Origin: Azolla caroliniana
Taxonomy: Eukaryota; Plantae; Polypodiophyta
DNA: 64,000 nt
Direction: 5' to 3'
NCBI GenBank assembly: GCA_043228905.1
Contig: JBHGNT010000007.1
Span: 14,012,001-14,076,000, forward strand
Position 1 is the first letter of the stretch. Each line of letters opens with the position of its first letter. Positions 1 to 40,109 of the stretch are shown here, in pieces. Below the pieces are notes generated by a model. It made no database searches, was not told the DNA's origin, and saw only the letters and a list, made by a program, of their open reading frames with translations. A program made the translations under genes and the position numbers.

Positions 1-502
1 GGCTACGGAGAGCCGTATGACACAGACCCGGTGCGAACTAGAGGAAGAGACATATTCGTAAATATGTTTCGAAGAGCCCATCGAGGCTACATTTTTAAAT
101 AGCCGAAAAGTCATATTAGTATAAATATGACTTAGGGAAAACCTTCTTCAGTTAGTAGTTGTCATTTTCTTGTTGGAGAAAGAAGAAGAGACAGTACGTA
201 ACGTTGTACAGAGAGAGAGAGAGAAAGAGGTCGCTGCCTCTGTTGTAACTGCCACCTGTGGCGAAGATCGTGAGTCCGAGGTCGTTGCCTCCGTGAACTC
301 ACTGTTTTTTGTACATTCTTACATAGTGACAGTTTGCAGCCTGTGGGCTGCCGTGGTTTTTCCCCTAGTTTGGGGTTTTCCACGTAAACCTCTTGTGTAT
401 CTTCCTCTTCTTTGTGTCGTGTTCTATTTCCCGTTTTCTGTGTATCATTCTAAGCTCGGTTATGGCCGAGCGTTGCACATAAGGAACGACCAGTTCCCAT
501 CA
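1..502 (+). mobile_element. Right part of a copia family X LTR (3' LTR or solo LTR), inserted in the extra ORF of gypsy A
   Basis: Shares long blocks with 16941-17628 and, reverse-complemented, with the LTRs at 57033-57776 and 61811-62765 (e.g. aaatagccgaaaagtcatattagtataaatatgacttaggg). Ends ...cccatCA at 502 with no PBS after it. Confidence 0.85.
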
Positions 503-850
503 CATCCCATATGCGTTTACATGTACACATCGAACCTCCAACTAGAACTTGGCGATTTCACGGAAAAAGGGATCTGGGATCTCCTTCGTTCTATATGCCT
601 TGGCGAATGATGAATATGGACCGAAATATCTATGCAGGGATTCCGCAGGAGGGATTTCGAAATGCCTTTCACCCAATGATGAGAAGTCCAATTTTTTCCG
701 GATGGATGACTTGGTGACCGTGTTGATGTTGAGCTTCCTAGCGATGTCTAGTGCGTCAGCGTGTGGAGGTGCCTCAGGGACTCTGATGTACCCATCCAAG
801 CGTTTCTCCACAAGCCATTGATGCAAGGCGATAGAGATGGATATCGGCAT
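503..850 (-). pseudogene. N-terminus of the gypsy A extra 3' ORF (plant mobile domain / transposase_32-like, tentative)
   Basis: MPISISIALHQWLVEKRLDGYIRVPEAPPHADA...YFGPYSSFAKAYRT...FFREIAK aligns by eye with the gypsy B ORF starting at 15311. Cut by the copia LTR at 502. Confidence 0.7.
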
Positions 851-1210
851 AGTCGGAATAGACTCGTGGCTAATGGGTGAAGACTGTTGGCTGCGGTGAG
901 CTTGAGCTCTGTGATAGGATGGAGAAGAGGGTGCGGGAGGGGAGCGATGAGAGCGATGAGAGTTAGAAGGTTGATTTCTGTATTGTAAAAAAAACCTTTT
1001 ATTTCCTTCTTTTTATGGACTAGGGCTCATTGGTCGGTGAGCCATCGTGGTGCCGTGTGTTCTTGGCCTAGAAGTCTGTGCATGCCTTAAGTCCTTTTAA
1101 TAGCATCGCTATCTTCTGCTTTTCCTTTTTTCTTTTTTCTTTTTTCTTTTTTTTCGTAATGGTTACATACAATACTATTTTTACACTATAATACAAGTGG
1201 GGCCGTCTAC

Positions 1211-7600: not shown

Positions 7601-7646
7601 CGTTGTTCTTCTGTGAGAAGACACAGATCACCAAGCGTGCCAAAAG

Positions 7647-8116
7647 TGTTACCGATTAGGAACACGGTCTACGGTCAGTCCTTCGACCTAGACCTCAAAG
7701 TGACTGTGTTGCAACGAATGGTATCGTCGTAGCGTAATACTTAGTGGGATACCTCCCGTATCCTAGTCGCGCATAAGGTAGATGGCTACAACCGAACTCC
7801 TTAGACACTGGACTAGCAACCACATTGTTACTCACACCTACACTCTTACGACTACGCTATGCCACCCAAGAATCACAAACCCATAGTAGATTAACCATAG
7901 ATACGCACAGGAATTAGAGAAGATAGAACTCTATTGGAATACGCCTTTTACATTCAAAATTACACGCTACCTCTCTCAGAGGTTTTCTGCCCTTTATATA
8001 CACAAGGTTTTTTAGCCGTTCACGCTTCCCGCGTGAATCGTTTACATGCGTTACAATATTACTCTATTCTATATTACTACGCTCTTGTCTGTCGGTTACT
8101 ATTCCTGCGGACAACA
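7647..8116 (-). repeat. 5' LTR of gypsy A (470 bp)
   Basis: Reverse complement matches 63576-64000 closely; TG..CA ends; adjacent PBS. Confidence 0.92.
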
Positions 8117-8880
8117 GGGATGGAAAAAAATAAAGGGATGCATAAATGGCCAATAGTGAACTGGAATCTTCAATACAAGGTGACCCCCCTCTCGAATACT
8201 GGACAACAAATCAAACTGAAACTAACAAGAAAAAAGTGGTTCAAGGAAATATGTGGAAGTGAGATGAAGAAGGACAACATAAGTAGAGTCAATATATATG
8301 GTAAATGTATTGATGAAGGATGGATCGTTGGTCTGTCCTATATTTTGGCCTTGGGAAATAAGGAACCACATAGCAGAGAAGAAGCACTTGGATGTTTGGA
8401 ACAACAAATGGATGTTCATGTAGACTCATCATATGGTACCGCAATAGGGATGAAAATGAAAAGACAATGGAAAGATGCCTTGATTTGGAGTTCGGGCAAG
8501 GCGAGTGAACAAGGCATATGCTACATAAATGTGAAATTTAGGATTCAACTTCCTAAAGTGTTCATGGAATTCATGGTATACATCCTTGAAATGCTGACAC
8601 AACTGGAAGAGGAAGATCACCAAGATAGGATATTAGCTACCATATTGGAAGCGGAAAATGCATTGGTCGGGCCTCAGAAGGTGCAGCTTATATGAATCTT
8701 AGCTTGCTAACTTGGAATATACAAGGAATTGGTGGCACCCAATTCCAGATGAAAAAGGATGTATTGGCTCCTAAAATCCAATGTTGCACTGAGGTAGTGG
8801 TGCTTGATATTATCTTGGTGCAGGAGCACCATCTAGATGAGGATAAGATCAATAAAATTGGAAGCATTTGCCCTAGGAAC

Positions 8881-9313
8881 TGTTACCGGCCGGCAAAGGA
8901 GTCCAGAGTGTGAAACGGGGAGTTATTTAATTGTTAGGAATGGTTGTAAGTAAGCTATGAGTGTGGACGGACGAACTGGAATCGGTATGCCGTTCCGGAT
9001 CCAGACCGATCCCGAACAGGTGCGGATGGCACCGTTTTGTAATTCTGACCGGAAACCTATTTCAAGGCCTAGATACAATGTAATGAGCAGCGGTTATTTA
9101 ATAAAGCTTAGTGTTGTTATCTCTCTGTGTTAATTGCCGTTCTGCATTCATTGTTATATCTTACGCATGTGAATATTAAGGACGATCATGCTAAGCAACC
9201 TAATTAAGTCGAATTAATCGTTGAGTCTAATCCTCTTGCCGTAACACCCCTTTGGTGAAGTGTCTTCCGTAGACACCCTGTCTTAGGCCATTGTCCGGCC
9301 CTAAGAGTTAACA
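8881..9313 (+). repeat. 5' LTR of gypsy B (433 bp)
   Basis: TG..CA ends, direct repeat of 18896-19309; TATA-like ctatttcaag and AATAAA on the + strand. Confidence 0.95.
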
Positions 9314-9366
9314 CAGTTTTTGGTGACCACGATTCCTGTTTTTGCAACGAATGACGGCACGGATGG

Positions 9367-12300
9367 ATGACTAGATCAACGCACGACCTGGTTACAGATC
9401 GAACTCGATGCCTTGCCGAAAGGCAAAGGAGACGTGAGGCTTTCCGGCAAGCGGCGCAGGAAATTAGAGCGGATCGCTCGTTTTCCAACGTAATTCGGAG
9501 AGTAGCAGAGGACTCCCTCTGGTTACAGCAAACATCACACCCGGACGACGGCAGCAGCCTAAGCAGCCTCCGGGAAACCGAATCCCTTCTCCAAGCGTTG
9601 GCAAACAGAGAAGGCGAAGCAGAAGCCTTTTCAACATATGAATCGGATTCCGAAGGGGAATACAGTGTCCACACGAACTACCGTAGCAGCAACGAAACCC
9701 TAGGCGGACCGGAGGACGAAGGATTGGACACCTTATCGACACCGGAACCGGAATTACTAAGGCTGGAACCTCCAGAACCAACAGAGGAAGAGCGACCTCC
9801 GACACCGGAAGTCGAGGAGGAGAGGCCTCCGTCACCAAAAGAAGAGGAAAGACCACCGACGCCGGAGAAAAACCAGGCACGACCACCAACACCGCCAGTC
9901 CACGCACCGATACCGGACGACGACATGCCCTTCCAGTACTCCAAGTATAGAGATGATCCGGACGCGGAAGCTCATGTTCACGCCTTTGAACAGACATGGG
10001 AAGCAAACCATGTGTCCCAACAATTGACCTCGAAAGAAGAGGAACGCTCTAAGATAGCGGAATTTGGCGTCACATTGGAGGGACCGGCAGCAAGATTACG
10101 CCAGACGCAGGACCCATCTACCATCACCACCTTTGCAGATTTAAAAGCTAAATTCTTGCATTTTTTCCAAAAGGAGGTGGACTAGACAGTAATGGTGGGC
10201 TTATTTTATACCATCCGACAGGAGGCAGGGGAGAGCATTCCCCAGTTTGTCATCCGGTTTCAACGGATGCATAGTCAGCTTGCCCACGCACCTCCGGAGG
10301 AGGAATTATGAACTATATTCCTAAATGCGCTCCGAGAACCCCTACGTACGGTTTGCACGGTAATTGACTTCCGCACAAGTACCATCGACCAGGTCATTGA
10401 CCGGGTGAGAGAGATGGAAAAGACAGGCTCCTGGCTCACACTAGGAGCACTCCAACGGGCGTTACCGTCCGATGAAGACCTCCGGTTTCGGCAAGCAATA
10501 CAGTGCACAACCTGCTTGAATTCCGGACACCCGGCACTAGAATGCACTATGAGGACACAATGTGTAATCTGTCAATCCAAGGGCCATACGATATATATGA
10601 TCGGTACCAGGATTACAATAGACAATACGAACATTACGACCGGGAGCACTCCCCCGGGTATCGTCAACAACGGGAGGAATACGGCAGATATAACAACCAA
10701 CCTCGTCAACAGTACCGCAATAAGAAGAACTATAGCAAAAAACGGCATTTCAAAAAAGGCGGCTACCCAAGGGATCCGAAACAAGGAGCTTCAAGCAGCC
10801 ATCTGGACCAAAACCCCACGCTTACCACGGGACTTGCCTCGGGTACAACAGACAATGCCGAATCCACCAGTACCCGGAAAGCCTACTGCTACTACTGCTG
10901 ACAGGAAGGCCATTATAGTAATCAATGCCCGGCGAAGAGCTATGACAAACGACCGGTAGTAAATATGGTAGTCCCTGAAGTGGCAGATCTACAGCAGGTG
11001 ACCACAAGGTCGAAGGGCATGGCCAAGGAATGGGAGACGCAGGAGACCATCCGGAAGCAAGCGACGGAGTGGGTGAAAAAAGCAAACGAGCAAAATGTCA
11101 CAGACCTACAGCGGCAAAAGGAGAATACCGTAGGGCTTGCCGGCGGCAGTCACGCCGAGAACGAGACATGGCTGGCATTGCAAGAATGCCAGATTACGCT
11201 GCCACTAGGAAGACTCCTACAGCTCGTGCCAAGATTCATGGAAGGACTGAAGACGGCCATGACGGCAGGAGAATCATCACTGGCACCGATACTCTTCTCG
11301 AATCACGGCCATTGTAAAAGGGAAAGAACTCCTCGGCACAGTTATAGACGGAGGCTCCGGGGTGAATGTAATAAGCCTCTGGACGTGTGATACCCTGGGA
11401 ATCCACGAGTGGGAGCCGTGTCCGTTCTGGTTACGGATGGCCGATACAAGCTCAGTGTGGCCGACAGGATTAATACGGAAATTAGAAGTCACCGTGGGCG
11501 GTCATACATTTCACATCTCGGCAGTAGTGCTACAATTACAGGCACAAGGCGCATACCCGCTATTGCTGGGGCGACCGTGGTTGAAAACGGCACATATCAA
11601 ACAGAATTGGAGGAAAAATATAATTACCTTCCAGCGAGGAAAAGCCAAGGTACGGGTACCAACACAGCCAAGGACGAGCACTGGCAAGGAATGTACACCG
11701 TTGTATGCAGATTGCGTCAACATGCTAGAAGGGTTAGCTGACGAAGAAGAAGCTCAGTACTTGGAAGAAAACCCGAAGATCATACCCCTCTTCGAAATTG
11801 ACATTGCCGAAGCAGTAGCACCATACTTACCGCAGCCGGAATAGGCGGAAGCAGAACTGGATAAAGACGCAATCCGAGAGTTACGGCAAGCGCAGGAAGC
11901 GTTGGAACGGGAAATGGCCGTTTCACAGCGCGTAAAAGTGTCGCAACTTGAAGAGGTGAACCTAGGGACCACGGACGAAGCAAAACTGATGCACATCGCC
12001 AAGGAGATGAAGTCCGAAGATAAAACGGCGATGATCACACTTCTCACAGGATTTCGCGACGTGTTCGCCTGGTCATACAAAGACATGCGAGGACTCGACC
12101 CTCAGTTATACCAACATCAGGTTCACTTGAGCAAGGACGCAAAACCAGTGGCACAAAGACGGTACCGAATGAATCCCAATTATGCCGCCAAAGTCAAGAA
12201 GGAAATCGACAAACTACTAAGAGTTGGCTTTATCCATCCGGTAAAGAAAGCGACATGGCTGAGCCGATCGTAGTCGTACCGAAAAAGAACAGAAAAATTT

Positions 12301-14863
12301 GAGTTTGTGTGGACTACCGGAAACTCAATGCGGCTACAGTAACGGATGCGTTTCCACTTCCGTTCACAGATGGAGTGTTGGATGCCGTCTCCGGCCATGA
12401 GGTCTATAGCTTTCTAGACGGATTCAGTGGGTATAATCAGATCCGGATGCACCCCGATGACCAAGACAAAACGGCTTTCGTCACCGAATGGGGGGTGTTT
12501 GTGGCCATGGTGATGATGTTCGGACTCAAAACGGCACCGGCAACATTTCAACGAATCATCATGGAAATCCTTGGTGAATATATCCCGGCTTTTATGCAGG
12601 TTTTCCTTGACGATTTCGCCATCTATAGCCGGGAGGAGGACCATTTTCGGCACCTCCGTCTTTGTCTAGAAAAGTGTAGAGCGTACCGGCTAAGCTTGAA
12701 TCCGGCAAAGTGTGTATTTGGCGTGTCCAGTGGAACCTTACTAGGACATATTGTGAGCCAAGAAGGCATTGCAGTTGACCCGGACAAAGTGAAAGCCATA
12801 TTAGAAGCATCCACGCCAGCAACGGCAAAAGCATTGAGCCGGTTCTTAGGACAGATCCGGTGGCACAGTCGGATGCTCCGATACTTGGCTGACCTGGCTA
12901 CACCATTGCATGCCGCCGTACATCGGACACCATTCCGGTGAACCGAAACCGAGGATAGGGCGTATAGGGCCCTCAAGGTACTATTGTCGCAAGCACCGGT
13001 AGTGCAGCCTCCAGATTGGAGTAAAGAATTTCATGTGTTCGTGGACGCCTCCGACATCACAATCGGAAGCGTACTGATGCAGCTTACGAAACCAAAGTGG
13101 TACCGGCCAGTGTACTATCCCAACCGAAAGCTATCCCAAGCGGAACGGAACTACTCTACCACGGAACGGGAAGCTCTAGGGATGATCTACAGTGTGACAA
13201 AGTTTCGGCATTATTTATTGGGAAGGAAGTTTTCCTTCCATGTAGATCATTCGGCACTCCTTTACCTGGTGTCCAAGGCGTCACTCACTGGTAAGTTGGC
13301 CCGGTGGACCTTACTATTACAGGAATTCGAGTTTGAAATATTCCACCGACCCGGTATACAACATGTCGTGGCGGATTACTTAATCTGATTAGAGTCCGGA
13401 GAGACGGGGGATGGAGTAGCGGACGAGTTTCCGGATGCGGAGCTGTTTCGAGTCACTACGGAAACGGCAGCAGATGAGACGGTGGCACAGGAAGACAAGT
13501 GGCTCACAAACATGCACCAGTTTCTGAGCACAGGACTGCCTCCGGAAGAGATGAACCGGGACAAAAGGAAACGCCTCGCAGTGCAAAGCCGACATTTTTG
13601 CTTACTGCAAGACACACTTTACCACAAGGGCGCGGATGGCATATGGAGACGGGCTGTGCGCAGCGATGAAAAGGACCTCATACTGAGGGAAGCCCACTGC
13701 GGAGTTGCCGGAGGTCACTATGCCGGAGATGCGACGGCATGGAAAATATGGCAAAGCGGCCTATGGTGGCCAATGATATTAAGAGATGCGGTACGGTACG
13801 CAAAAGAATGTGACCTATGCCAGCAAATGGGCCAGCCAATGAAGCAGGCTCGTATGCCACACCAGCCGGTACTACCACTCGAGCCATTCCAGAAGTGGGG
13901 GCTGGACTTTGTTGGACCGTTCAAACCACTGGCAATGAGAACAGGTAATCGGTACGTCATCGTCGCGATGGATTACTACACGAAATGGGTGGAGGCCAAA
14001 GCCTTAAGAGACAACACCGCTGTCTCAACGGCAAAATTTCTATACGAGTACATCTGGTGCCGTTAAGGATGCCCGATCGAATTAATAAGCGACCAAGGGG
14101 GGCACTTTCTCGGCCAAGTAGTTGAAAGCCTGATGACATTCTATGTCGTTGTCCATAAACGGAGCACACCATACTATCCGCAAGCAAACGGGTTAGCAGA
14201 ATCGACGAACAAAACGCTCCAGAATATCCTCCGGAAGATCGTCAACGAAAACGAACGGATTGGGATACCAAGCTACATAGCGCGCTTTGGGCATACCGGA
14301 TGGCATATAAAACGAGCATCCGAACAACACTGTTCCGGTTAGCGTTCGGACTAGAGGCAGTAATGCCGGTGGAATTCCAAGTACCCAGCTTACGGATCCA
14401 GCTACGGGAACGGCTAAATGAGAAGGAGTCGGAGGCAATACGGTTAACAGCGCTGTGTGAACTCGAGGAGCAACGACTGGCAAGCATCCTGCACTTAGAA
14501 TTGGACCAACGGCGACGGAAATCATTTGTCGACCGGCACAGGAAAGGAAATGAAAAAATGTTTGCAATCGGCAAGCCGGTGTTAGTATTTCAGACCCGGA
14601 TGGGCAAGATGCCGGGTAAACTACGGTTTAGATGGACCGGTCCGTATTGGCTGACACGTGAGTATAATGGGTCCTACCAGTTAGGGACACTTGTCGGCGA
14701 AGTGCTAGGAAAATGGGTCAACGGATTCCGATTGAAGCCATATAGAGGACCGATGCCTAAGAACCCATTTGAGCAAAGGACCGACACAGGCGAGGAAATG
14801 GCAACCTGTGAGGGGAACGGCAACCACCAAGTCGGAGGAGACGGCAAGCTGGTAACAGGGTAG
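9367..14863 (+). pseudogene. gypsy B gag-pol pseudogene
   Basis: gag (DPDAEAHVHAFEQTWEANH), CCHC knuckles, protease VIDGGSGVN, RT VFLDD, RNase H DASD..NYSTTEREAL, integrase HHCC + GLDFVGP. Several stops and frameshifts. Confidence 0.94.
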
Positions 14864-15310
14864 AATGAGGCGACGGCAAACCGTAATGAAGCCGGTAAGG
14901 GTCCGATAGGACCAACGGACAACTAACCTCACACCACATTAAAATTTAATAATAATAATAATAATAATAATAAAGCGAACTAATCATGCAAAAGCGAGGT
15001 ATGAATGGACGAAACAGCGAGGAGCGAAAAGGTACGTAGTGGGCATTTAAGCGCCACCACAGGACATAATGCTATTTTAGTACACGACGTGCACACACTC
15101 GAAAAAGGCGCCAGAATGCACAGAGAAAAACCACTGCACATGGAGACCCTCTACTTTCGCGAACCCAGGAGCACAGAAGCACCAAGGCGCTGCAAGATCA
15201 TCAGACGAGAACCTACGCACAGAGAACCCCCGCCTTCTGAACTCTCTCTCTCTCACTCTCACTCTCATCACCATCCAACCTCGTCACCACAATCCGACCT
15301 CGACACAGAC

Positions 15311-17311
15311 ATGGACCCGCAAACGTTGTCGGAAGCCGCCAAGAAATGGCTAAAGCAACACGGGCTCGAGGGCTTCTTGACGATTATGGAGGCACCGCCA
15401 CACAAAGAAGCCGACAAGGTGATCAAAGAAATCGACACAAAGGTCATAACGGATGAGGCGATCCGTGCGTTAACAGGCCTTCCGGAGGGAGGCATATTCA
15501 CGATTGACAATCCGACCTCGGAGCAACTCATCAAGTATTTTGGTGAGTACTCCCTAGCCAGCAAGGGCTACCGGACACAGGGCGGCGGAGATATGTTGTT
15601 CCGCGAGATTGCCCGTGTGCTCCACGAATACGGCCATGTGTACCCCAGACCCCCTGTCATGCCGTAGAACCGGGCAAGGATGATCATCGCCACCTATGAA
15701 AGGATCAAGGTGGACTGGCCGGTATTGATCGCAGACAGTTTGTGTGTGGCGATCGAGATTGTCAGAGGAAAAGACGGCAAAGAAGGCCGAGAAGGACGGA
15801 GGATATGGCACGCAGTAACGCAATGGCTCACCTTGCTTGTGCCACCCGTCGAGCCCGTACAGCCCAAGAATCGGGGAAGAGTGGCGGACGGCACCCCAAA
15901 GACGGCTTCCAAAAGACAACAGTTGTTGGCCTCTAAGGCCACTAAGGGGAAGGTGGCGAACGTAGAACAGGCGGGAAAGGAGAGCGCCAGCCGGAAGTGG
16001 CCAACGGACGCACAGGAGGAACCACCGGCACGGCCCGTAAAGGTTACACTTCGCCGACCGGTGAATAGAGATGCGGACCCTTTAGCGGCAAAACTCAATG
16101 CCGGGACTCACGAAGAGGAAATAGAGGAGGAGCCTACGGAGCACCTCCAGCGACGGTCGTCGGCAAGGACCGTTGAGGCAGCCGGGAAACGTTCGGACCC
16201 TTAGACGGAGGGAACACCGGCTCCCCATACTGAGACTCACACGCCAAGGGAGGAATCGGAACCGGTGCGCACGGCACCGGAACCAGAAGCCCCTACACCA
16301 CCGGCAACACCGGCAAGTCCCATCCCGCCAGAGCCGGAAAGGTCAATGCAGCCTCCCTCGGCCAACCAAGAAGAAGTGCAAGGGGAACTAGGACAGCAGG
16401 GTGGTCCACAGGCAGAAACGGAATTGCAACTCGGCACAATCAGGCGGGACCACCCATCTACAAGCGAGCCCATCTGTCAAACCTCCGTGCAAGCACAACA
16501 ACAATGCACCGGTAGCCCGTGGCTCCGGTGGATAGGCAAACAAATTGCCGGAGCAGTGGGGTATATTGAGGTGGAAGAAAGAGCGCAAAGCGAACGGTTG
16601 CTCGTCACAACCGAACAACTAGAGACAGCCCGGTCCAGAATCCGGTGCCTTGAAAAAGACTTGGATCAGGTCACGGCAGAGATGGCCAAAATGGCCTTAA
16701 CGGCAACACAGATCCAATCACCGATGACTCTGATAAGTGTACAAAATAAAGAAACGGATCAACCTGTACATACCAATAAGACCCAGGCAACGGAAACCGT
16801 TCCAGAGAGAGATGCGGCGCAAGCCCAGGAGCTTGTGGAATTGAGAGATGAACTTGCCGCACAAGAAGCGCTAAGGAGTCGGGAACGGGAATTGAAGACA
16901 GCGGCTGAATCAGAATTAAAGAAGACTGTTGAGAACCTCCTGTTGGAAGACAAGTCCCTTCGAATGGGAAGGGAGAAGAACAGTGCCGACGAACAAACTC
17001 AGCCGAGGCCGAAACGGTATGAACCGGATGGGGAGAACCCGACTTCGGAGAGTCGGATGGTGGAGGCCCGGTATGAACCGGATGAGGAGTACCCGACTGC
17101 GGAGAGTCGGATGGTGTAGGCCCGGTATGAACCGGATGAGGAGTACCCGACTGCGGAGAGCCGGATGGAGCCAATCGAGGCTACATTTGTAAATAGCCGA
17201 AAAGTCATATTAGTATAAATATGACTTAGGGCAAACTTTTAGTTACTGTTGTCATTCTCGTTGTTAATTTTTCTTGTTGGTGCAAGAACAAATCAGAGCG
17301 CGTAACTGTAC

Positions 17312-17342
<31 letters not shown>

Positions 17343-18841
17343 CGAGGTCGTTGCCTCTGTTGTAACCGCCGCCTGTGGCGAAGATCTGAGAACACGAGGT
17401 CGTTGCCTCAGTGATCTCACTGTTGTATATTTCTGCATAGTGACAGTTTGCAGCTCGTGGGCTGCCGTGGTTTTTCCCCTATTTTGGGGTTTTCCACGTA
17501 TACCTCCTGTGTACCATTTCTCCTCTTCTTTTTTCTTTTGTGTCGCGTTTCATTACCTGTTTTCTGTGTATGAAAAGAATCTCGGTTGTGGCCGAGCGTC
17601 GGACATAAGGAACGTCGAGTTCCCAACACCTCCGTCGGGCAGAGGAGAGCCTCCGGAAAGGCCATCAAGCGTACGACCGGCTAAGGGAGGAAAAAGACAA
17701 AGTGCTGCAGGAAAAGGACAAAGTGCTGCAGGAAAAGGACAAGCTGCGGAAGACGGCAAAAACGGAAATTGAACGGCTAAAGGAAGAGCTCCGCCAGCAG
17801 AAGGACCGCGAGGACCGGGCCCGTCGACAGATCAACGCACGGCTCAAGCAAAAGACAGATGATTTTGAGCACCTGGACCGGGACTTCAAACGGCTGGAAA
17901 CGGAGCATAAGGAATGGATGGCCGAACTCCAGCAGGAAGTTGATCGGGCCGCAACGGCGATCGCCGACGAACGTGCGGAAAATACAAGACGGTTGGACGA
18001 GGCGGAGAAGGTCCGGATAGAGCTACAGAGGCAGCAGCAGGAAGAAAAGGAGAGAGCGTCAACGGTATTGCAGAAATTACAAAGCACATATCAAAGGCAA
18101 TTGACGCATTACAAGGAGCAGGCGGAAGACAACGTCAAAATCATCAAGCAATTGAAGGAGGAACGGCAAGCGGCGGAGATCAAATCGCAATTGGGAACGG
18201 GCCGGATTCAGTGCATCCTCCGGGCATGGTTGAATCAGACAAAACACTTGATCGACGAAAGCTCCGTAAGATAGTGGACAAAGTGGGCACAAAATGCGGC
18301 GGAACTCCAATTGCTACGGGCAGACGTGGCAAACCGGCGGAAGGAAGGAGATGATTGTTACACGTTGACTTCCGAGGACTTCACCGCCATACGAGACGAG
18401 CTGGCCGACGACTTCCAAGTCTTGGCGGATGAACAGCTGGCGCAGGTCCGGCAACTTGTAGCTCAGCTAGACGATTATAGGCTGGACGCTCAAATCCAGT
18501 TTGAAAGCTACGAGCGGTCCCGGATTCGGGAAGAAAAAGCACGGGAAGCGGCAACGGTTAACCTTAGTGATGAGGACCCATTGCCGGCCGAGGGCTAGGT
18601 TGGAACCAGTCAACCAGAAACCACTACGATGGAGGGAGTAACGACAGAAACGCCGGTGTCAGAGCAACAAATGGAGGAGCAACCGCAACAGCCACCAAAG
18701 GACCCGTCGCAGCAGCCATCAACAGAGCAGCAACAGCAGCAGCAACAACCACAACAACAACAACAACAACAACAACCAATTCCAGATGAACCATTGGAGA
18801 CTCTCGAACAAAGCATTCTGGATATTTTGGACGAAGAATAG
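15311..18841 (+). pseudogene. gypsy B extra sense-strand 3' ORF (about 950 codons without the inserted LTR): PMD/transposase_32-like N-terminus, disordered linker, long coiled coil, polyQ/acidic tail
   Basis: ORF pieces 15311-15667, 15680-16204, 16265-16940, 17702-18274, 18311-18598, 18629-18841 lie between the integrase and the 3' LTR. Motifs ITDEAIRALTGLPEGG and KVDWPVLIADSL. Confidence 0.75.
16941..17628 (+). mobile_element. Solo LTR of copia family X (688 bp)
   Basis: TGTTGG..CCAACA ends, perfect TSD CCTCC (16936-16940 / 17629-17633), homologous to the LTRs of 57033-62765. Contains a 54-bp tandem repeat at ~17016-17170. Confidence 0.93.
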
Positions 18842-18876
18842 CAAGGGTCGGATGTGGATTCGACGTACAAGGTACT

Positions 18877-18893
18877 GTCCCACGGGCGTGCCA
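18877..18893 (+). promoter_or_regulatory. tRNA-Arg 3'-end-like motif (inverted PBS) at the PPT position of gypsy B
   Basis: GTCCCACGGGCGTGCCA ends 2 nt before the 3' LTR; no purine run adjacent to the LTR. Confidence 0.7.
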
Positions 18894-18895
18894 TG

Positions 18896-19309
18896 TGTTA
18901 CCGGCCGGCAAAGGAGTCAAGAGTGTGAAACAGGGAGTTATTTAATTGTTAGGAATGGCTGTAAGTAAGCTATGAGTGTGGACGGACGAACCGGAATCGG
19001 TATGCCGTTCCGAATCCGGACCGATCCCGAACAGGTGCGGATGGCACCGTTTTGTAATACATACCGGAAACCTATTTAAAGGCCCGGATACAATGTAATG
19101 AGCAGCGGTTAATTAATAAAGCTTAGTGTTGTTATCTCTCTGTGTTAATTGCCGTTCTGCATTCATTGTTATATCTTACGCGTGTGAATATTAAGGAAGA
19201 TCATGTTAAGCAACCTAATTAAGTTGGATTAATCGTTGAGTCTAATCCTCTTGCCGTAACACCCCTTTGGTGAAGTGTCTTTCGTAGACACCCTGTGTTA
19301 GAGTTAACA
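18896..19309 (+). repeat. 3' LTR of gypsy B (414 bp)
   Basis: Direct repeat of 8881-9313 with a 19-bp deletion near its end. Confidence 0.95.
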
Positions 19310-22300
19310 GGAACTGGACCAATACATGGTCAGCAGCTACGGGGGATAGGCAGATTTAGGGGGGAGTACTTATAGCTATGAAAGCTAAGTTTACTATTGA
19401 TTGTACAAGCAGGGGGAGTTTAATAGAGGGTCGTGATGTCTACATAAGGATAAAACATAGTTGTGGGCACTTGGGCATACTGAACATATATGCCCCAAAT
19501 TCAGTTGCTAAAAGACGAGAATTCTGGTTGCAATTACAGTGGCCAAGAAGCCAGATACTGAGTTGTGGATCATTGGAGGAGACTTTAATATGGTGGAGCA
19601 TCCAGAAGATAGAAGAGGCAATGCAAATGGCATGGTGCAGGGGGTGGAGAAGTATGCATGGGATAAGTTTTGTTTAGCATATAATGTGATAGACTGTTGA
19701 AATGCACCTAATTTTCAAATGCAAAAAGAAAAATTTCTTCGATACTCTAGAGTAGGAGGAAGTGTGCATGGGCGGACGATGTCCAGGTTGGACAGATGGT
19801 ATTTGGACCCTCGACTCATGGATAGGAAAGGCAAATGCATTATTTGTTTGGGTACAATGTTCTCTGATCATGCCCCAATTTGTTGCACATACAAGAAAAC
19901 AATCGATGCAAGCCACATAATGTGAAAGTGTGCAAGGAATTGGTTATGGATATTAAATGGATCGATGATATACGGAAAATATGGTCTAATATCAAATGGA
20001 GGTACCTTGACCCTGCTCATAGGCTAGCTGGGAAACTTGAGGCATGTGCACGTTTTTTTCAACATAAAGCGATTGAAATTAGAAAAGAGATAAGGGAGAA
20101 AATGCAGAGAATGCAATGGTCGCTCGTTTCTATGCAACGACTAAGAGAATTATACCCACATAATGTATGGATTGAAGCTCGACTAGAGGAGGCCAAAAGA
20201 AAATTAGAGATGTACCAAAAACTTAGGAGTACTTATGCGTATTGAAGTAAGGCAACAAGCTGGATGAGGGTAGGAAGGATTTTTTGAAGCTGTTAAATGC
20301 AAAGGATCCGGGATTCAACCTTCATGCTTAAAAAAGATAGATGGCACAATGACCACATGCAAAGAGGAAATGCTTGAAATAGCCACAAGCTATTATACTC
20401 AACTACTAAGTGTATGCAATGAGGAACTAATTGATCAGGTTGCCTTCAAAAATATAATAAATAGGATACATAAAGTTACAACTCAGATGATGGACCGACT
20501 AAATACCCCTATAGGTATGCATGAATTGTGGGATGCTATTGGCGATATGAACACACAAAGCTGTGCAGGAATTGATGGACTTCCTATATACTTTTACATC
20601 CAATATTGGGATCTAATTAAGGATGACATGCTGGCAAGGATGCAATACATTATGGTAGAAGGATTAATGCCCACAACAATGTGTAGAGGCATGATTTATT
20701 TAATACCCAAGGTTGGTAAAGACCTAACAACGCTTGATAATTGGCGACCATTGACGATTCTCACCAATGCATATAAGATAATGGCCAAAGTCGTAAGTAA
20801 GAGATTGAAAATGGTTCTTGGGGACATTATACATACAACGCAAACTGGCTTCCTGGAAAACCGGAGCATTGTTGACAATGTGATAACATTCTGGGAATAC
20901 TCAACATGGGTGGAGGAGCAAGAAGTGGACCTAGCAGTAATGCTACTCGACTTCGAAAAAGCTTATCACAGGATTTCATGGGATTTCCTAGAAGCGGTGA
21001 TGGCAGCCCTAGGTTTTGAACAACAATGGATCCTTGGAATGAGTGCCTTTTACAGAGGTGCATCCAGCCAGGTGTTAATGACTGGAAGTATGGGGAAGAG
21101 CTTTAAGATGCTACGTTCGGTACGCCAAGGATGCCCATTGGCCCCATATTTATACATCATTGCAGCAGAAGCTTTGCATTATCAAATTGCTAATAGATCT
21201 TGGCAAATACAAGGCCTTACCTTGCCCGATAATGAAGGTATGGTGCTTGATACGGCATATGCTGATGACACAATGACCTATGTCAAAGGTGATGCACACA
21301 ACTTGGGCAGATTGCAAAATGCAATTGATGAGTTTTGTAGGGGATCAGATGCTAAAATAAATTGGAATAAATCTATGGGCATTTGGATCAGTAATAAGCC
21401 CATGTTAAATTGGGTCCCCGACCCCAATTTTAGATGGTTGAGGAAAGGAGAAGCTACAAGATACTTGGGCTTCAAAATTGGTATGGACATCGATCGAGCA
21501 AAACATTACAATCTACTAATGGACAAAATAAAAGCGAAGTTAATATGGTGGAATGCAAGAAAACTATCCTTTGCGGGCAAGATTGTGATTGCAAATCAGA
21601 TTCTAATGGCCACTATTTGGCATACTGCTACATGCTGGATAATCGTGCCCAAGTCGATGAAATTGATAAAAAGGATTATCAGAAATTTCTTATGGGGGGG
21701 GCACGGAGGAAAAACAGGCCTGTGCAAAGTTTGCTTGGACCATGCTTATAAAAAGGAAAAGTGAAGGTGGGGTAGGATTGATAGATCCCATGGTGCAAAC
21801 GAAGGCCTTGCTAGGCAAACTAGTGGTCAGGAGCCTACAACCTCCTGAGGCACCTTGGAAAGTTCTATGGCGGCGTAGATTGAGGATGTGGTTGCCGAGA
21901 CAAGGTGGACGTTGGCCAAGCAGCCCATTTTGGGGCTTTGTGCCAGAAATGAGACCCAAATATTGGGGAAGTATGCAGAGTCACTGTGTTATTGGAATTA
22001 TGAAAGCATGGCAAGAAATCAGAAAGGGGATCACATGTAGGTGGAGAAATGATGCATATGCACGGATGTACATGCCAATTGTATGGAACCCATTGATTAG
22101 AGATATGGATGGGCTAATGATAGGCCAAAAAGCAGGTTTCAAATGGGCTAAGTTAATCAATGCCCAAGGGAATGCATTAGTGGAGAGGGAGAGGTTTTTG
22201 TCCAATGAGGTGGGCACTCAAAAGGCTAGAATATGGAGAATAAGCAGGGGTAAAGGCATGCTCAAGAGAATTACAGATGCCATTGCATGCTACAGGAATA

Positions 22301-24594
22301 CCGTGGAAGAGGAAGAAGTAACAACCTCTGAAATTGCATGGACAAAACTTTTAGATGCCGAGAACTGTTTAATTGGCATTAAGGGAATGAAAATAGAATC
22401 AAATGAGGTATTCTACTACAAACTAGAGCACAGAATGGTAAGAGTTGAGCAACCAACCTTTCAAAGAGAAAGGCCGATTAGGCTAATCGCAAAAAGTGGC
22501 AAGAATATGATTATTAACCCTAAACCAACGGAGATCACACCAGCAACAGTGTGTTGGCCTATACAAGGGCATTTGGATCAGTTATAAGGGGACCCAACGA
22601 TGTATTGTTGGAGAACTCAAAGACGAACTGATGGGGAAAAGCTAGTTAAATTTTTTAGGTATAACACGAAGATTGGGAGGCAAATTATTCTAGAACAAGA
22701 ACACGACAAGATTGCAACAAGGAAATTTTGGATACAGGAGGGCATTAGTGAAATGAGACTAGATAAATTCTGGAAAACGATATGGCATGACAGATATGAC
22801 CGCAAGATAATGACCGCAAGATAATGATGTGTTTATGGCTTATTGCACATAGAGCCTTGCCGGTAGGGACGTGGGGTAAAGGCCCCAATGTAGACCCTAG
22901 ATGTATTGCATGTGGATAGATAGAAAGCATTTCCCATTGTCTATGGGAATGTCGCGAGGCAGTGGTTGTATGGGGAAGGCCACTACGTTTGCTTTGCCAT
23001 GCCTCTAGTTCGTTCACCCTCAACTGGGGGCATGCTTGTTGGATTTGTCTTGAGGATGATGTGGCGAAATACGATGGCATGTGTGATGCTAAGTACATAG
23101 GGGAGAATGGCATCATGCGGTTGATCACTAACAACAGGGTACCTACAACTTGTGCACAGAATCAAAAACTTGGAGATTTTTGGATGTTGCTTGGCCCCAT
23201 TACTATATGGTATATATGGACAGCAAGGTGTACCAGGGTATTTTCAGCACACAAACGCCCCCTAGCTGAATCGATTAAGCTAATCTGGCACACATTAATA
23301 ACTACACTAAGAGCTCAATATGAGCGTATTGATGGTACTAATGATGTCGCAGAACTAATGAGGCTGAATTTTTGAAAGCAGTGGTGTACTACACCGATGG
23401 CCGCAGCAAATGGAATGGATATACTATGGAGGTATGAAGTAACCAAATGGTTGTTCCCCCCCTCCCATTAGATGAACAAGGGGGGTGAAAGACATGGCAT
23501 GTGGGATAGTGAATGTAGGTGATGTGCATGAAAGGATGGCTAGAGCCATATGTGAAAGTGTAAGATAAATAAGCAAGATCTCTTGTGTAGGATAGGATAG
23601 TCTTGGCTCGGCCTTCCCGAGAAAGGGATCGAGTTTGTGTATATTTTAACTAAAGGAGTATATTCTTTTTTGGAAAAAAATATATATACAAGAAGACTAC
23701 ATTAGGCTTATAACAATCAAAGCACTATAATGCCAAAGGGTATGCAAGCAAGAAGGAAAATTCCACAAAGTACTTGAACCTAAATTCTTTATTTACATAG
23801 ACATACAACGGGCCTAGGGTCAATAACATGGAGAATTGACTAATTGTAGAGACATTACAAATAAAAAAAGCACATGGAGACAAGGATATTCATGAACAAA
23901 TGCCTATTCTCAATGTTGCATATAGTGCTTCAAATGAACCTCAAGGGAATAATCACAACAATTACTACAATGAGTCATACTTGAAAGGTCAAGTGACCTC
24001 TAGCCACATCCTTTCCTCTCACATTGTTTTGGATTTTCTTGAACCAATCCTCAATTAGATAATTTTCACAATGATCTAACTCTTACAAGCCAATCACCTT
24101 TGATTTTGCTATTATCATAAATATATCAAACTTCCAACAATATTTAATTTCAAAAAGAAAAATGCCACTTGCAAAATGCTATGTGAAAATCATCACTTGA
24201 TGATGTTTTGATAATGTAACAATGAAAAAGGCTCTTGATTTCGATATATATGTACCTACTGATAACCAAGTATAGACTAATGCCTGCAAATGTTATCACA
24301 AAATAAAGATTGCACCAGAAGAATTTAATTGCATTGTTTAAGATCTCAAAAACTTTCTGAAAATACATCTAAAGATAATGAGAAGGTAATGATTGTTCAC
24401 AAAGATTTAACTGCATCATTTTAGATCTTGGAAACTTTTTAATTGCATTGTCTATAATACATAACTTGTTTCAAGTTATAGGAATGATTGCTGCAACACC
24501 CAGAAAAAACATAGCAATGTCACATCTAGACATTCGACGATGGGGAGCATTGAAAAGCAATGAAGGAAAATGTAATGGAAAGAATGTATGCTAT

Positions 24595-32780: not shown

Positions 32781-34531
32781 AAAACAGTTATAATATTACG
32801 CCAGGTTACTATTACATCATTGGTGGTGGCTTTATAAGCCCACCATCGATACAGTTACGGTTTCCTTCTCATGAAGGAAACTGTATTCCTAGGATTAATA
32901 TATTTTATTTATTTATTTTTGCTTATAATAATTATTATTTTCCACACTCCCCCCTAAGCAAAAATTTCTAAAAGTGTAGATTTTTATCTTTTTCTTCGAT
33001 TACATCAATTAATCCAATTTGCTTGCAACAAATAATGTGCTTAGAATGTTGAAGAGGTTTCGTTAGAAAATTAGTCCACATTTGATGAGTGGGAGCAAAC
33101 TTTAACTCTATTTTCTTTGTTTCAATGAGATCGTGAAGAAAATGATGTTTTAAGTCCACATGACATATATTGTCGCTCATCTTCGGATTGTTGGCTAACT
33201 TGATGCAAGATTGATTATCGCAAAACAAAGTCACTGTTGGAATAGTATATAGTTTAAATTCTTCAAGCATAGCTTTAATCCATATGCCTTCTTTAGCCAC
33301 TAAAGCCGCGGCAACATATTGAGCTTCGGCGGATGACAATGCTATGATAGTTTGTTTCTTTGACTTCCATGAAATTGTAGTGCTAGCTAGTGTGTAAACA
33401 TAGCCACCTATTGACTTGCGATCGTCCACTTCTCCCCCCCCAATCTGAGTCTGACCAACCATATAGTTGGCTAGAGGGATTTGTCCATCCTTGCACAAGT
33501 GTAGTTGACTCAAATTGTATGGCCGAGTATGTCAACGCATAATGTTGAGTATGCTTCAAGTATCGTAGTAATCTTTTGAGCGCGATCCAATGCTTTGGTC
33601 CTGGATTAACCATGAAACGAGAAAGAAAACCGGCGGCAAAGCAAATATCGAGACATGTGTGACTTACGAAATATCTTATACACCCAAGAATTTGTTTATA
33701 GGGTACATCCTTCATTTCGGAAATTTCTCGTTCATTTTTAGGAGAATCATCATTTGAAAGTTTACATGGAGAGGTAAGAGGAGTACTAATAGGCTTACTA
33801 TGGAGCATATCAAATATTTGGAGGATAGAATTACTATAATTTGATTGTGATAATGAGATACTATGATTTGTTCTATTTTGAGTTATTTTGATGCCTAGAA
33901 AATGTGTCATAGGGCCTAAATCAGTGATAGGAAAGACATATGCAAGTTCCTTCTTTGCAATAGTTAGATAAGATTTGGAATTAGAGATCAAGGTTAAATC
34001 ATCAACATAGACACCTATGATAACAAAATCGGATTTGTATTTTCTAACATATGGGTAAAAGCATGCGAGTGGAAACACTATTATAGCTAATTAGCTACTA
34101 AAATGGCCATAGCTAATTAGCTATTTGTTTAGCTAGTCTTTCTTGTGGGAAAATCAAATATTTGAAAAACTAATTTATGAAAAAACTCAAATATTTGAAC
34201 TTCTGTTTCAGACGTAGTGGAACTTGGGGAATATCACCATCATCTAAGGTCGACTTCAATGTCATCAATTTCCTGTTTAGCCTAAGTCTGATTTTGAACG
34301 CAGATGGAGTACTCAGAGCACGAACGCAGACGTAGCTCCCGCAACAGCAAAAAATCAACATTGCAGATTGAGAGCTACAACACAGAACCCGCTCGATCAT
34401 CGTCCAGGTATGTTTCAGTTACAGAAACCCCAAACATTTGTTTTTTCTTTTTGACTACTGTCTGAACTTTGGTGCCGATTCATATTTCCTCAAAATCGAA
34501 TAGGGCGAAGTCCTTGGAGTCCCATACAAGG

Positions 34532-37500
34532 ATGTCTCGCAAATCGGGGAGTAGCAACAGGTGTGTTTATATTACTTTTTTTGTGTTTAATCCTGTCTTT
34601 AGTGATTAGGGTTTGTGATTGAAATTTCTGATTAGGGTTTGTGATTGAAATTTCTGATTAGGGTTTTTGATTATAAATTTCTGATTAGAATTTCTGAATA
34701 GGGTTTTTGTTTATAAATTTCTGCTTAGGATTTCTGATTAGGGTTTGTGATTGAAATTTTTTATTAGGGTTTCTGATTGAAATTTCTGATTAGGGTTTTT
34801 GATTATAAATTTCTGATTAGAATTTCTGAATAAGGTTTCTGGTTACAAACTTCTGATTACAGATTTTGATTAGGGTTTCTGATTTCAAACTTCTGATTAC
34901 AGATTTTGATTAGGGTTTCTGATTTCAAATTTCTGAATACAAATTATGATTAGGGTTTCTGATTTGCTAAGTTAAAGATTTTGCACCATTTTTGTTGTTG
35001 TTGATTGGGGTTTTTGATTCTCACATATTCTGATTTTGCACTATTTCTGATTTCTGAAATGATATTTCAGATGGCTCGTTCCTCCGTATACGAGAGTGCT
35101 AAACTTCGCAAAATTTTGCGAGACAAAGGAGGACTTCCACAACACCTATGGTCTGTCACTCGAGGGTGTTGACCCTGCTGTCCTAAGTGATAAATTGATC
35201 AGTGATATAGACTGGATGACAGTATATACAGTGCCTAGAGTCAAAGGCAAGGTCAAGCTGAAGCATGTACGAGCCGACTTGTACGATGACTGCATGAGAC
35301 TGCACCAGAAAGTTCATCAGGAGATCCCAGTCAACAATGAGTTGTCAGTTTCATTTGCTAGAGCATTTGCATATGAGTACTGCAAAACAGCGAAGGAATC
35401 TAGAGACCCTGAAATGTATAGGGTAGCTTGGGCAGTCTATGGTGAGGCATCGGTAAAAAGATGCCGAAAGATGGGGACCTTGGCACAAAAAATAGACAGA
35501 TTTTGGAGCATGGCAGCTGTTGATGCAACTGCCGACTCCCAGCAAGACCGGGGGCATACACCACACCGACACCCAAGGAAAGCCAATGTCGATGATACAG
35601 GTGAGACATTGGTTAGCTATATGCTAAAAAATGTCCATGAAGCCTGTGAGACATTGGCATTTTTTAAGACTGATTTAGAGAAAGCCACAATGGCTTCTGC
35701 AATGGAGAGCAAAGTTACTTCTGCTGTTACAACAATTAGAAATAAGATTCAGGTAACTATTGTTTTGCTGGTATGTGATTGTGTTATAAATAACGGGTAA
35801 AATGTGCTAATCAAGCATTATCTGGAATAGGTTGCGCAACAAGAGCTTGAATTAGAGGGGCCACTGGATCCCCAGCGTAAAATAGAACTGCAAATAGAGA
35901 TCCAGGTTCTTTCAATGAACCTGGACCTTCTAGGTGTAAATACTGTTGCAGATTACAATTTGGATAAGCTTCAAGTAAGTTAACGATTCCTGAGCAAAGT
36001 TGGTGTATCTTTCAACAACAAGAATAATTAATCGGTAAATTTCTCTGTTGCGTTGAAGGAACAATACATTCATCAAGAACAGGTAGTTAGCTGCCTTAAG
36101 AAGAAGCTACATTTTGTGGAGGGAATGGTAAGGACCAGACAGGATTTGGACCTGAACATTCTTGCTCCCTTACCAAATGAAGTAGAACCAGAAAATGATT
36201 TATTGACAGTTCAAGCACGTTGCATCGCTTGCGGGTTAGGTGTGGAGGACAAAACTGCGTCTTTGTTGGTTCACCTACAACCATGCAACCACACATACCA
36301 TCTGCTTTGTTTTCAACATGCCTGTCGAATTGCTGCATTCTGTTTGGGAGATTGCAGTACAACTCTACCAAATGAGTGGAGAAAACAAACAGGTATACCA
36401 TACTGTAGCTAATAAGCTTAGTCTTTTCTAATTAGCTATCCTACTAGCTAATTAGCTATTGGCAGCTAATGAGCTACTAGCTAATTAGCTATCCTAGTAG
36501 CTAATTAGCTATGGTACTAGCTAATTAGCTAGTACCATAGTTGTGTAAAAAAGCTAAATAGTTGTGTAAAGCTAATAAGCTAATTAGCTACTGCCATAGT
36601 TGTGTAAAGTAGCTAATAAGCTATCCTAGTAGCTAGTTAGCTATGGTACTAGCTAATTAGCTAGTACCATAGTTGTGTAAAAAAGCTAATTAGCTATCCT
36701 ACTAGCTAATTAGCTACTGGCAACTAATTAGCTATCCTACTAGCTAATTAGCTATCCTACTAGCTAATTAGCTACTGACATAGTTGTGTAAAGTAGCTAA
36801 TAAGCTATCCTAGTAGCTAGTTAGCTATGGTACTAGCTAATTAGCTAGTACCATAGTTGTGTAAAAAAGCTAATTAGCTATCCTACTAGCTAATTAGCTA
36901 CTGGCAACTAATTAGCTATCCTACTAGCTAATTAGCTATCCTACTAGCTAATTAGCTATCATAGTAGCTAATTAGCTACTGACATAGTTGTGTAAAGTAG
37001 CTAATAAGCTATCCTAGTAGCTAATTAGCTACTGGCAGCTAATTAGCTATCCTAGTAGCTAATTAGCTACTGGCAGCTAATTAGTTGTCCTAGTAGCTAA
37101 TAAGCTATCCTAGCTACTACATAGTTGAGAAAGTAGCTAATTAGCTTTCATTGTAGCTAATTAGCTATCCTAGCTACCACCATAGTTAGTAAAGTAGCTA
37201 ATTAGCTATCCTAGCTACTACCATAGTTGAGTAAAGTAGCTAATTAGCTACCATAGTAGCTAATTAGCTATCCTAGCTACTACTATAGTTGTGTAAAGTA
37301 GCTAATAAGCTATCCTACTAGCTAATTAGCTATCCTAGTAGGTAATTAGCTATGGTACTAGCTAATTAGCTAGTACTATAGTTGTGTAAAAAAGCTAATT
37401 AGGTATCCTACTAGCTAATTAGCCACTGGCAACTAATTAGCTATCCTAGTAACTAATTAGCTACTGCCATAGTTGTGTAAAGTAGCTAATAAGCTATCCT

Positions 37501-38699
37501 AGTAGCTAATTAGCTACTAGCAGCTAATTAGCTATCCTAGTAGCTAATTAGCTATCCTACTAGCTAATTAGCTACTACCATAGTTGAGTAAAGTACCTAA
37601 TTAGCTATCCTACTAGCTAATTAGCTACTACCATAGTTGAGTAAAGTACCTAATTAGCTATCCTACTAGCTAATTAGCTACTACCATAGTTGAGTAAAGT
37701 ACCTAATTAGCTATCCTACTAGCTAATTAGCTACTGGCAACTAATTAGCTATCCTAGTAGCTAATTAGCTATCCTACTAGCTAATTAGCTGCTGGCAACT
37801 AATTAGCTATCCTACTAGCGAATTAGCTATCCTAGTAGCTACTGCCATAGTTGTGTAAAGTAGCTAATAAGCTATCCTAGTAGCTAATTAGCTACTGGCA
37901 GCTAATTAGCTATCCTAGTAGCTAATTAGCTACTGGCAGCTAATTAGCTGTCCTAGTAGCTAATAAGCTATCCTAACTACTACCATAGTTGAGTAAAGTA
38001 CCTAATTAGCTATCCTAACTACTACCATAGTTGAGTAAAGTACCTAATTAGCTATCATACTAGCTAATTAGCTATCGTACTAGCTAATTAGCTATCCTAG
38101 CTTCTACCATAGTTTAGTAAAGTAGCTAATTAGCTATCCTAAATAACTGTCATGTTATTGTAGAATCTTGTGGATTAAGGACGGCACATGATGTGTCTGG
38201 TGCTGATGATGCTGCAACAGATGAGGATACTACTGCCAATGTGGCTGAAAGTAAGAGTCCTGCTATCACATCTCCTTCAGATCAGCTGCACCCTATTCTT
38301 TTGGAACAGTGTACTGAATTAGGCAACGATGTGAAATGCCATGAAATAGTGGAAACAACATGTAAAACTGAGGTTCACAACAACAGTGTTTATGAACACT
38401 TGATGCAACATTTCTTCGAGTCTCAAGACCTTGATTCCACCCCACCGAGCCCAACTACTGAAAATGTCCAAACAGATCCCTCTGTACTTGAAAAGCTAGT
38501 TCAAGAAACGGCTGATGTGCAATTAGCTGCTGAGGCGATGGGAAGGTTGTCGGAGGAGGACACACTTGCGCATTGGGTCCTAGAAGCAAGGCTAAATGGG
38601 GAACCAACCAGAAAAAGGCTGAAGAAGGGGCCACGATCGGGAACAAGACCAGTTATTCGGTCAAGGGGCCCAGACGTAGTGGAGCGAAATACTGTTTAG
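34532..38699 (+). CDS. Transposon cargo gene: unknown N-terminal domain + coiled coil + RING-H2 finger + acidic tail with basic NLS-like end, 5 coding exons, 574 aa
   Basis: Exons 34532-34560, 35071-35752, 35831-35974, 36059-36392, 38164-38699, all GT-AG with matching phases (2,0,0,1), 1725 nt, no internal stop. RING pattern C-x2-C-x17-C-x-H-x2-H-x2-C-x10-C-x3-C. Probable 5' UTR intron 34408-34503. Confidence 0.78.
34600..34965 (+). repeat. Intronic tandem repeat (13/26-bp unit) rich in the telo-box TTAGGGTTT
   Basis: Variants of gattagggtttgtgattgaaatttct, with about nine TTAGGGTTT motifs. Confidence 0.9.
36405..38140. repeat. Satellite built on the 14-bp palindrome TAGCTAATTAGCTA, filling intron 36393-38163
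   Basis: Dozens of copies separated by short spacers (tcctagta, ctggca, ccatagttgtgtaaag). Confidence 0.95.
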
Positions 38700-39964: not shown

Positions 39965-40109
39965 ATATGTAAAGAGATGACATTATTCAATGAAGAATTT
40001 AATTACTTGTTCCCACTGTACTTATCTACTGTGTAATTTGAGGAATATGTTGCAGATTGTTGATTTCATTCTATTGATGACTATTTAGCTATTGACAGCT
40101 AATTAGCTG

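Follow-up and report, generated by a model that had tools for sequence, protein, structure and literature searches.

How is plus-strand DNA synthesis started in an LTR retrotransposon that has no polypurine tract (PPT)? The question is raised by two gypsy elements in the window, which here means the whole 64,000-nt stretch of Azolla caroliniana DNA that was analysed. In the standard scheme, as given in the available parts of PMC5371799 and PMC10886601, priming from a PPT is regarded as a feature that retroviruses and LTR retrotransposons share, and the left LTR end is set by the start of the plus strand. The first-pass annotation had noticed two tRNA-like motifs with CCA placed 2 nt before the LTR, and both sites are confirmed. 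GTCCCACGGGCGTGCCA-TG-TGTT lies at 18877-18899 on the 3' LTR boundary of element B, and GTCCCACAAGCGTGCCA-GG-TGTT lies at 63557-63579 on that of family C. A pattern spanning both sites has 2 matches in the window, against 0.04 expected.

The claim that no purine tract adjoins either motif holds beyond the window. Among 113 sites (111 outside loci and the two window sites), the longest purine run in the final 25 nt before the LTR is 3 nt or less without exception, and in the final 60 nt it is 7 nt or less at 112; no conventional PPT lies beside the motif. The copia elements were said to have normal PPTs in all three cases. This stands for two, as purine tracts precede the copia 3' LTRs that were located (from 52651 on the plus strand and near 57779 on the minus strand), whereas the third tract, before TG at 32947-32955 on the minus strand, marks a junction that is only presumed, with its LTR pair not located. 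A simple inversion of the element interior is ruled out. As had been noted, gag-pol and the 5' primer binding site (PBS, at 9321) are both on the plus strand, and all 33 loci with protein matches have them in sense, with 0 antisense among the 33 of 113 matches hit by window proteins.

Element B is a Ty3/gypsy element that spans 8881-19309, has the TSD GGAAC on both sides, and shows the RT-RNase H-integrase order of the Ty3/gypsy arrangement (Table 1). Its LTR pair measures 433 nt and 414 nt, with 394 matches, 20 mismatches, and 19 gap columns. No additional RNase H domain (aRH) was seen in the window ORFs or in the intact relatives P0121-P0125, and no chromodomain occurs among the Pfam matches of the window ORFs and relatives. 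The extra ORFs at 15005-18838 have homologues in 31 related loci and belong to no Pfam family; an atlas search with an extra ORF returned weak coiled-coil look-alikes only. Gypsy A (~500-1200, minus strand) has sequence like these extra ORFs after its pol. Element B is surrounded by a LINE (8120-8880 and 19310-22587, RT at 20274-21764). A further gypsy copy at 45648-64000 has a B-like 5' LTR and PBS and a family C 3' end, and its interior is broken by two copia insertions (from 47841 on the plus strand and at 57033-62765 on the minus strand); judging by this layout it is nested or chimeric. Several tandem arrays (13/26/40-nt, 20-nt palindromic TAGCTAATTAGCTA-type, 255-nt, and 83-nt) occupy 34577-45294, and ORF pieces amid them match NIF phosphatase (38864-39964) and HTH (43324-44112).

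Table 1. Coordinates of element B and of the family C sites in the window
Feature	Position	Strand	Remarks
5' LTR of B, TG...CA	8881-9313	+	TSD GGAAC at 8876-8880
5' PBS of B, TGGTGACCAC	9321-9330	+	7 nt past the LTR; relatives L036/L062 have TGGCGACCAC
gag-pol of B, broken: gag, protease region, RT, RNase H, integrase	9355-14863	+	no additional RNase H domain seen
Extra ORFs of B, broken, sense, coiled-coil-like	15005-18838	+	interrupted by a copia-type LTR at ~17064-17633
T-arm copy of tRNA-Arg(UCU) nt 49-58, GTGGATTCGA, G53>A	18854-18863	+	weak extension to nt 47-48
13-nt insert between tRNA nt 58 and 59	18864-18876	+	4-bp covarying hairpin, 18865-18868 with 18872-18875; invariant T at 18876
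Copy of tRNA-Arg(UCU) nt 59-76 including CCA, without nt 66	18877-18893	+	minus strand is the predicted 17-nt tRNA binding site
Spacer TG, 2 nt, before the LTR	18894-18895	+	
3' LTR of B	18896-19309	+	TSD GGAAC at 19310-19314
5' PBS of another family C copy, TGGCACGCTTGGTG	7629-7642	-	tRNA-Arg(UCU) type including the nt 66 partner; LTR 7647-8116 on the minus strand
Family C cassette	63533-63575	+	T arm 63533-63542, hairpin insert 63543-63556, tail 63557-63573, spacer GG, LTR from 63576

At the PPT position lies a cassette of ~42 nt. Aligned to a tRNA-Arg(UCU) gene, it corresponds to nt 49-76: nt 49-58 are followed by a 13-nt hairpin inserted between nt 58 and 59, by nt 59-76 without nt 66, by 2 nt, and then by the LTR. 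The motif had been described as a tRNA 3' end, which is correct, but its upstream continuation across the hairpin into the T arm had been overlooked. Bacterial and phage tRNA-Arg genes only served to name the tRNA until a plant-type copy was found in L002, a relative that belongs to the assembly series of the other outside loci. This tRNA-Arg(UCU) is complete, plant-type, and ends with CCA (ARAGORN; Rfam RF00005, 71 bits). It lies antisense at L002:1190-1265, ~460 nt upstream of the 3' site of the element and at the contig end, and looks like a full read-through of the minus-strand primer that was followed by an internal jump. Its 3' end reads GTCCCAC-C-GGGCGTG-CCA, from which it follows that the cassette is without C66. 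The plant tRNA-Arg(UCU) end given in the first-pass annotation, with one C missing from the motifs, is thus borne out, and the motif fits a plant-type 3' end with the captured L002 copy as reference. ARAGORN found no tRNA over the window, and Rfam gave chance matches only on the cassette.

The search pattern was built from the two window sites, and for this reason the 111 outside loci are the real test of the motif. Metagenome contigs were scanned for the 17-mer, with its variable spot free to be 1-3 nt long, followed by NN-TGT. The scan gave 122 loci from 24 of 64 parts, with a total estimated at ~330, and the motif was kept in 111 loci that were retained as elements, all from one series of assemblies. 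Eleven loci were dropped, together with a duplicate match in L087: L066, L100, and L079 are 5' PBSs read backwards, and the other eight (L015, L018, L026, L029, L032, L058, L067, and L110) have T-arm scores of 3-6. Single linkage on the flanks gave ~45 families among the 102 copies with enough flank.

Since the tail positions are fixed by the search pattern, variation in the tail is not scorable. The variable spot inside the 17-mer is 2 nt long, and thus lacks nt 66, at all 113 sites, although the pattern permitted 1-3; its bases are GG in 47, AG in 34, GA in 18, AA in 9, and AT in 5. A T stands directly before the 17-mer at every one of the 113 sites. The gap between CCA and the LTR is 2 nt in 113/113, a value that was demanded by the pattern at the loci and is independent at the window sites with verified LTRs. 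Upstream of the 17-mer and outside the pattern, the 10-mer GTGGGTTCGA has a T-arm score of 7/10 or better in 104 of the 108 copies, compared to 33 of 1620 control windows. Its distance to the 17-mer is 13 nt in 67 of 96 distinct copies and 14 nt in 22, and enrichment extends to nt 47-48 (22 and 25 of 45 families, background 29%). Changes C56>T (6 families) and G57>A (8 families) in the T arm show no asymmetry.

The cassette is also present in public DNA runs under four organism labels (A, B, C, and D), and 358-905 contigs per run cover a 56-nt cassette stretch under labels A, B, and D. The contigs covering the cassette have loose ends beyond ~18849-18856 and 18899, and therefore the conserved unit is ~45 nt and common to elements with unlike flanks. 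Viral contigs contain neither the cassette nor a relative of P0125. At the protein-matched loci (33 of 113 matches), homology to the extra ORFs lies upstream in sense, and gag lies downstream in sense after an LTR and PBS. A single 2340-nt contig (L024/L025) holds a ~2.3-kb unit of LTR, PBS, interior, and cassette, with both sites kept and no gag/pol match, and is likely a non-autonomous member; several further families are also without protein matches. On this comparative evidence, the cassette is real, conserved, and functionally constrained.

The preferred reading, with a probability of about 0.65, is that the cassette is a second, bipartite primer binding site on minus-strand DNA, at which plus-strand synthesis would start from a second host tRNA-Arg(UCU) instead of a PPT. 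It is drawn from sequence comparison and builds on the position of the cassette, its conservation, its tRNA match, the covariation of its hairpin, the missing PPT, and the overwriting by tRNA sequence of the 5' PBS alone.

The hairpin insert differs from its surroundings in being conserved in structure only, whereas the tRNA parts are conserved in sequence, which points to an invariant outside partner. Nine distinct perfect 4-bp stems occur among 75 family-by-hairpin variants. On average 3.51 of the 4 hairpin pairs form, compared to 2.63 for shuffled arms (maximum 2.91, n=1000). In an alignment of 25 copies, hand-picked out of the 113, double changes occur at all 4 hairpin pairs (24 cells versus 8.7 when shuffled). 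The covariation implies a single-stranded role. Non-Watson-Crick pairs on the plus strand comprise 15 G-T and 9 A-C, a slight lean away from the minus strand.

This lean fits an unlikely alternative, in which the element's own RNA over the cassette forms a structured tRNA-shaped fragment that is cut after CCA, survives RNase H, and primes the plus strand in cis like a PPT. A second tRNA would then be unnecessary and the standard scheme would be kept. GTGGG and CCCAC are able to pair on the plus strand, and T55>C (13 families) improves the plus-strand pair with G59. On the other hand, the 7-nt T loop is destroyed by the insert, and the acceptor 5' strand is found upstream in 17 of 108 copies compared to 24% in shuffles. 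In 4 families, B among them, G53>A produces a plus-strand A-C mismatch, and the T stem shows no compensatory change in the 25-copy alignment, in which its 3' side is fixed by the pattern. Folded alone, neither strand of the cassette does better than shuffles (6/6 each), the RNA strand included. A cis RNA primer also leaves unexplained why unpaired tRNA letters are kept and how RNase H would cut precisely in mixed sequence. A host tRNA is favoured over such a mimic because the T loop is broken, the acceptor 5' strand is absent, and the tRNA parts are conserved as sequence beside a covarying hairpin. The suggestion of the first-pass annotation that a second host tRNA may prime the plus strand is supported comparatively and fits better than its version with a tRNA-mimicking RNA.

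The 5' PBS provides a second line of comparison. In cassette families it usually measures 10-14 nt, the longer ones including the nt 66 partner, and it begins 1-7 nt after the LTR. Among the families with 5' junctions in L010-L078 this gap varies over the same 1-7 nt, whereas the 3' gap is constantly 2 nt. In L079 (reverse strand, first 140 nt), which belongs to the L025/L040 family by 83-93% identity over the LTR end, the usual 10-nt PBS is replaced by 18 nt that match tRNA nt 76-59 at 17 of 18 positions. Reverse transcription of a tRNA primer is expected to stop at modified A58, and 18 nt is the length expected from such a stop. L066 and L100 also have an 18-nt PBS for tRNA-Arg(UCU), ahead of a sense ORF. 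Overwriting of the PBS by tRNA sequence is thus seen in two copies (L079 and L002), while nt 66 is restored at 0 of 111 3' sites. Because the 5' site is rewritten from tRNA and the 3' site never is, the 5' site should be the first-strand PBS, and the 3' site a PPT-position site that is copied from the genome only.

The same observation counts against a quite improbable exchange of roles, in which both strands would be tRNA-primed, an antisense transcript would be packaged, the cassette would be the first-strand PBS, and the short 5' site would prime the second strand. With its ~26 tRNA pairs and constant 2-nt gap the cassette is indeed more PBS-like than a 10-14-nt 5' site with a 1-7-nt gap. 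However, the rewriting expected of a first-strand PBS is found at the 5' site, and the sense strand carries gag-pol as well as the TATA-like and AATAAA-like motifs of the LTR.

The type of the 5' PBS is not constant. Element B, L036, L062, and L042 have a TGGCGACCAC-type PBS, which corresponds to a different tRNA end from that of the 3' site and which we take to be Arg(UCG). The L042 family mates L050 and L073 have a UCU-type PBS with the same 3' site throughout, so the PBS type switches within a family. Elsewhere in the window, TGATACCA-TA-TG at 45637-45649 immediately precedes another gypsy copy, at its 5' LTR; TGATACCA presumably resembles the initiator tRNA-Met end, and its occurrence is probably due to chance. 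In 7 of the 9 Arg(UCU)-PBS families, compared by eye, the variable bases agree between the PBS and the 3' site (one is mixed and one is discordant). Such agreement is what would be expected if the cassette paired with the 5' PBS in genomic RNA, as a minus-strand primer or circularisation signal, and the plus strand started otherwise. In the Arg(UCU)-PBS families this pairing extends over 8-10 nt with ddG -9.8 to -17.2. It is negligible (ddG -3.3 to -4.7) in element B, L036, and L042, which have the other PBS type and still an intact cassette. The B family thus already contradicts this reading. Moreover, the captured tRNA copies indicate that it is a host tRNA that primes at the PBS, and the constant 2-nt distance to the LTR finds no explanation, which makes this reading very improbable.

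Binding of the tRNA to the minus strand was modelled by co-folding with the L002 tRNA, with RNA parameters as proxy. CCA is paired and nt 66 is unpaired in all 45 family representatives. The means are 16.9 pairs in the last 18 nt and 8.9 pairs in nt 49-58, with ddG -20.8 on the minus strand versus -5.6 on the sense strand; there is some circularity in these values, since every sense copy of a tRNA will pair, through its opposite strand, with that tRNA. Replacement of the T-arm segment weakens tRNA binding in 41 of 45 families. In the model, the tRNA bound to minus-strand DNA makes a three-way junction with the hairpin at its centre. In the element RNA the cassette is tRNA-sense and shows no tRNA binding (ddG -5.6).

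Under the second-tRNA reading, replication would proceed as follows. Minus-strand synthesis would begin from a first tRNA on the short 5' PBS. RNase H would clear the RNA, and two stretches of the minus DNA would become accessible, one of 17 nt that can pair with tRNA nt 76-59 and one of 10-12 nt that can pair with nt 58-47. The T stem of the second tRNA would open and pair with both segments around the DNA hairpin, which would give a three-way junction at 58/59 with nt 66 bulged. The 3' CCA of this tRNA would then start plus-strand DNA 2 nt before the LTR, and no sequence-specific RNase H cut would be needed. Finally, the tRNA would be removed by RNase H and the 2 nt trimmed by integrase. The fixed 2-nt gap would place the primer 3' end at CCA, as the left LTR end is set by the plus-strand start. 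The junction may orient RT for polymerisation, or, as a speculation, shield the hybrid from RNase H. RNase H can attack a tRNA-DNA hybrid, and the acidic residues of the enzyme look intact, so protection must be assumed. Probably, then, a highly amplified lineage has dropped its PPT and uses host tRNAs to start both cDNA strands, the second via a tRNA-DNA three-way junction, with two different tRNAs in some families.

A role at the DNA level has also to be weighed: the T-arm copy might be a Pol III B box or another DNA signal, or the cassette a frozen accident from an inverted PBS without any priming role. The insert presumably removes the C61 spacing of the box B consensus, and the hairpin covaries in a manner that implies a single-stranded role. 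The box B core is GGTTCGA, and tRNA-derived promoters are described for Helenus in the available text of PMC10886601. However, the site here is outside the LTR, it is kept across ~45 families with diverged flanks, and nothing else remains to prime the plus strand, so that a DNA-level signal or an accident is hardly credible.

In a quick tree of 54 RT-RH sequences (SH-aLRT only; P0135 and P0276 left out owing to short aligned regions), the window elements and five ENA proteins form their own long-branched clade (100), apart from the chromoviruses. The clade sits inside a group with liverwort (Marchantia/Riccia) elements (97), and the sister of this group consists of angiosperm elements, presumably Athila. 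Among named Pol proteins, those of Marchantia (37%) and Riccia (36%) come closest. These relatives point to a non-flowering land plant as the probable host. The lineage is a candidate member of the aRH-lacking Tat Z1/Z2 grade of PMC10508981, which its features fit and whose main text, in the part available, makes no mention of PBS or PPT. Tat Z1/Z2, Phygy, and Selgy of non-flowering plants share the RT-RH-INT order with no aRH seen; in contrast to them, the present elements are ~10 kb long, have sense extra ORFs, and form their own long-branched clade. Phygy (4-bp TSD, Trp) and Selgy (4-bp TSD, Ala), as given in the available text of PMC6317226, are rejected as candidates, since the TSD here is 5 bp, the PBS is Arg-type, and ~3.5 kb of extra ORFs replace their small non-pol interior; the PPT is referred to there only in generic terms. 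Tat elements with aRH (Ogre, Retand, TatI-III) are rejected because no aRH is present in the window ORFs or P0121-P0125. Ogre, Retand, and TatIII resemble the present elements in tRNA-Arg priming and 5-bp TSD; they carry aRH and have a tRNA site at the 5' end only (PMC6317226, same text). Athila features a tRNA-Asp/Asn PBS, unlike the Arg-type PBS here, and the window elements fall outside the angiosperm clade for which that label is presumed. Helenus/TRIMp3 is rejected as well, as it has A and B boxes in the LTR and keeps its PPT, whereas the cassette is outside the LTR and no PPT is present.

Several known systems resemble the cassette in part. In the bipartite PBS of yeast Ty1/Ty3, a single tRNA binds through its acceptor end and its T arm to two segments that lie apart; these segments are on the RNA genome and serve minus-strand priming, and Ty3 starts its plus strand from a PPT (PMC5371799, available part), whereas the polarity here is opposite and the site is at the PPT position. 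Drosophila Gypsy has tRNA sites at both genome ends, two for tRNA-Lys2. According to the accessible portion of PMC1635307, both anneal tRNA on RNA and only the 5' site is needed for cDNA synthesis; in contrast, the 3' site here is tRNA-sense on RNA and could bind tRNA on the minus strand only. Helenus TRIMs also hold tRNA-derived sequence within an LTR element. It is a Pol III promoter in the LTR, the elements keep their PPT, and a role in priming is ruled out by the author (PMC10886601, in the text available).

PBS and PPT are general LTR-retrotransposon features in the available text of PMC11963269. The openly accessible literature that was searched shows no LTR element with a tRNA-primed plus strand, in line with the earlier remark that none was known for plant LTR elements. 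To our knowledge, priming is known to vary for the minus strand only. The element is thus probably of a known kind with an undescribed priming route. Annotation filters that rely on a PPT can miss or mis-orient such elements. The cassette also offers a defined 42-nt substrate for asking how RT decides whether an RNA primer on DNA is to be extended or degraded. If the reading is true, a successful natural lineage with a tRNA-primed plus strand would show that the PPT is replaceable, and two replication steps would be gated by tRNA supply.
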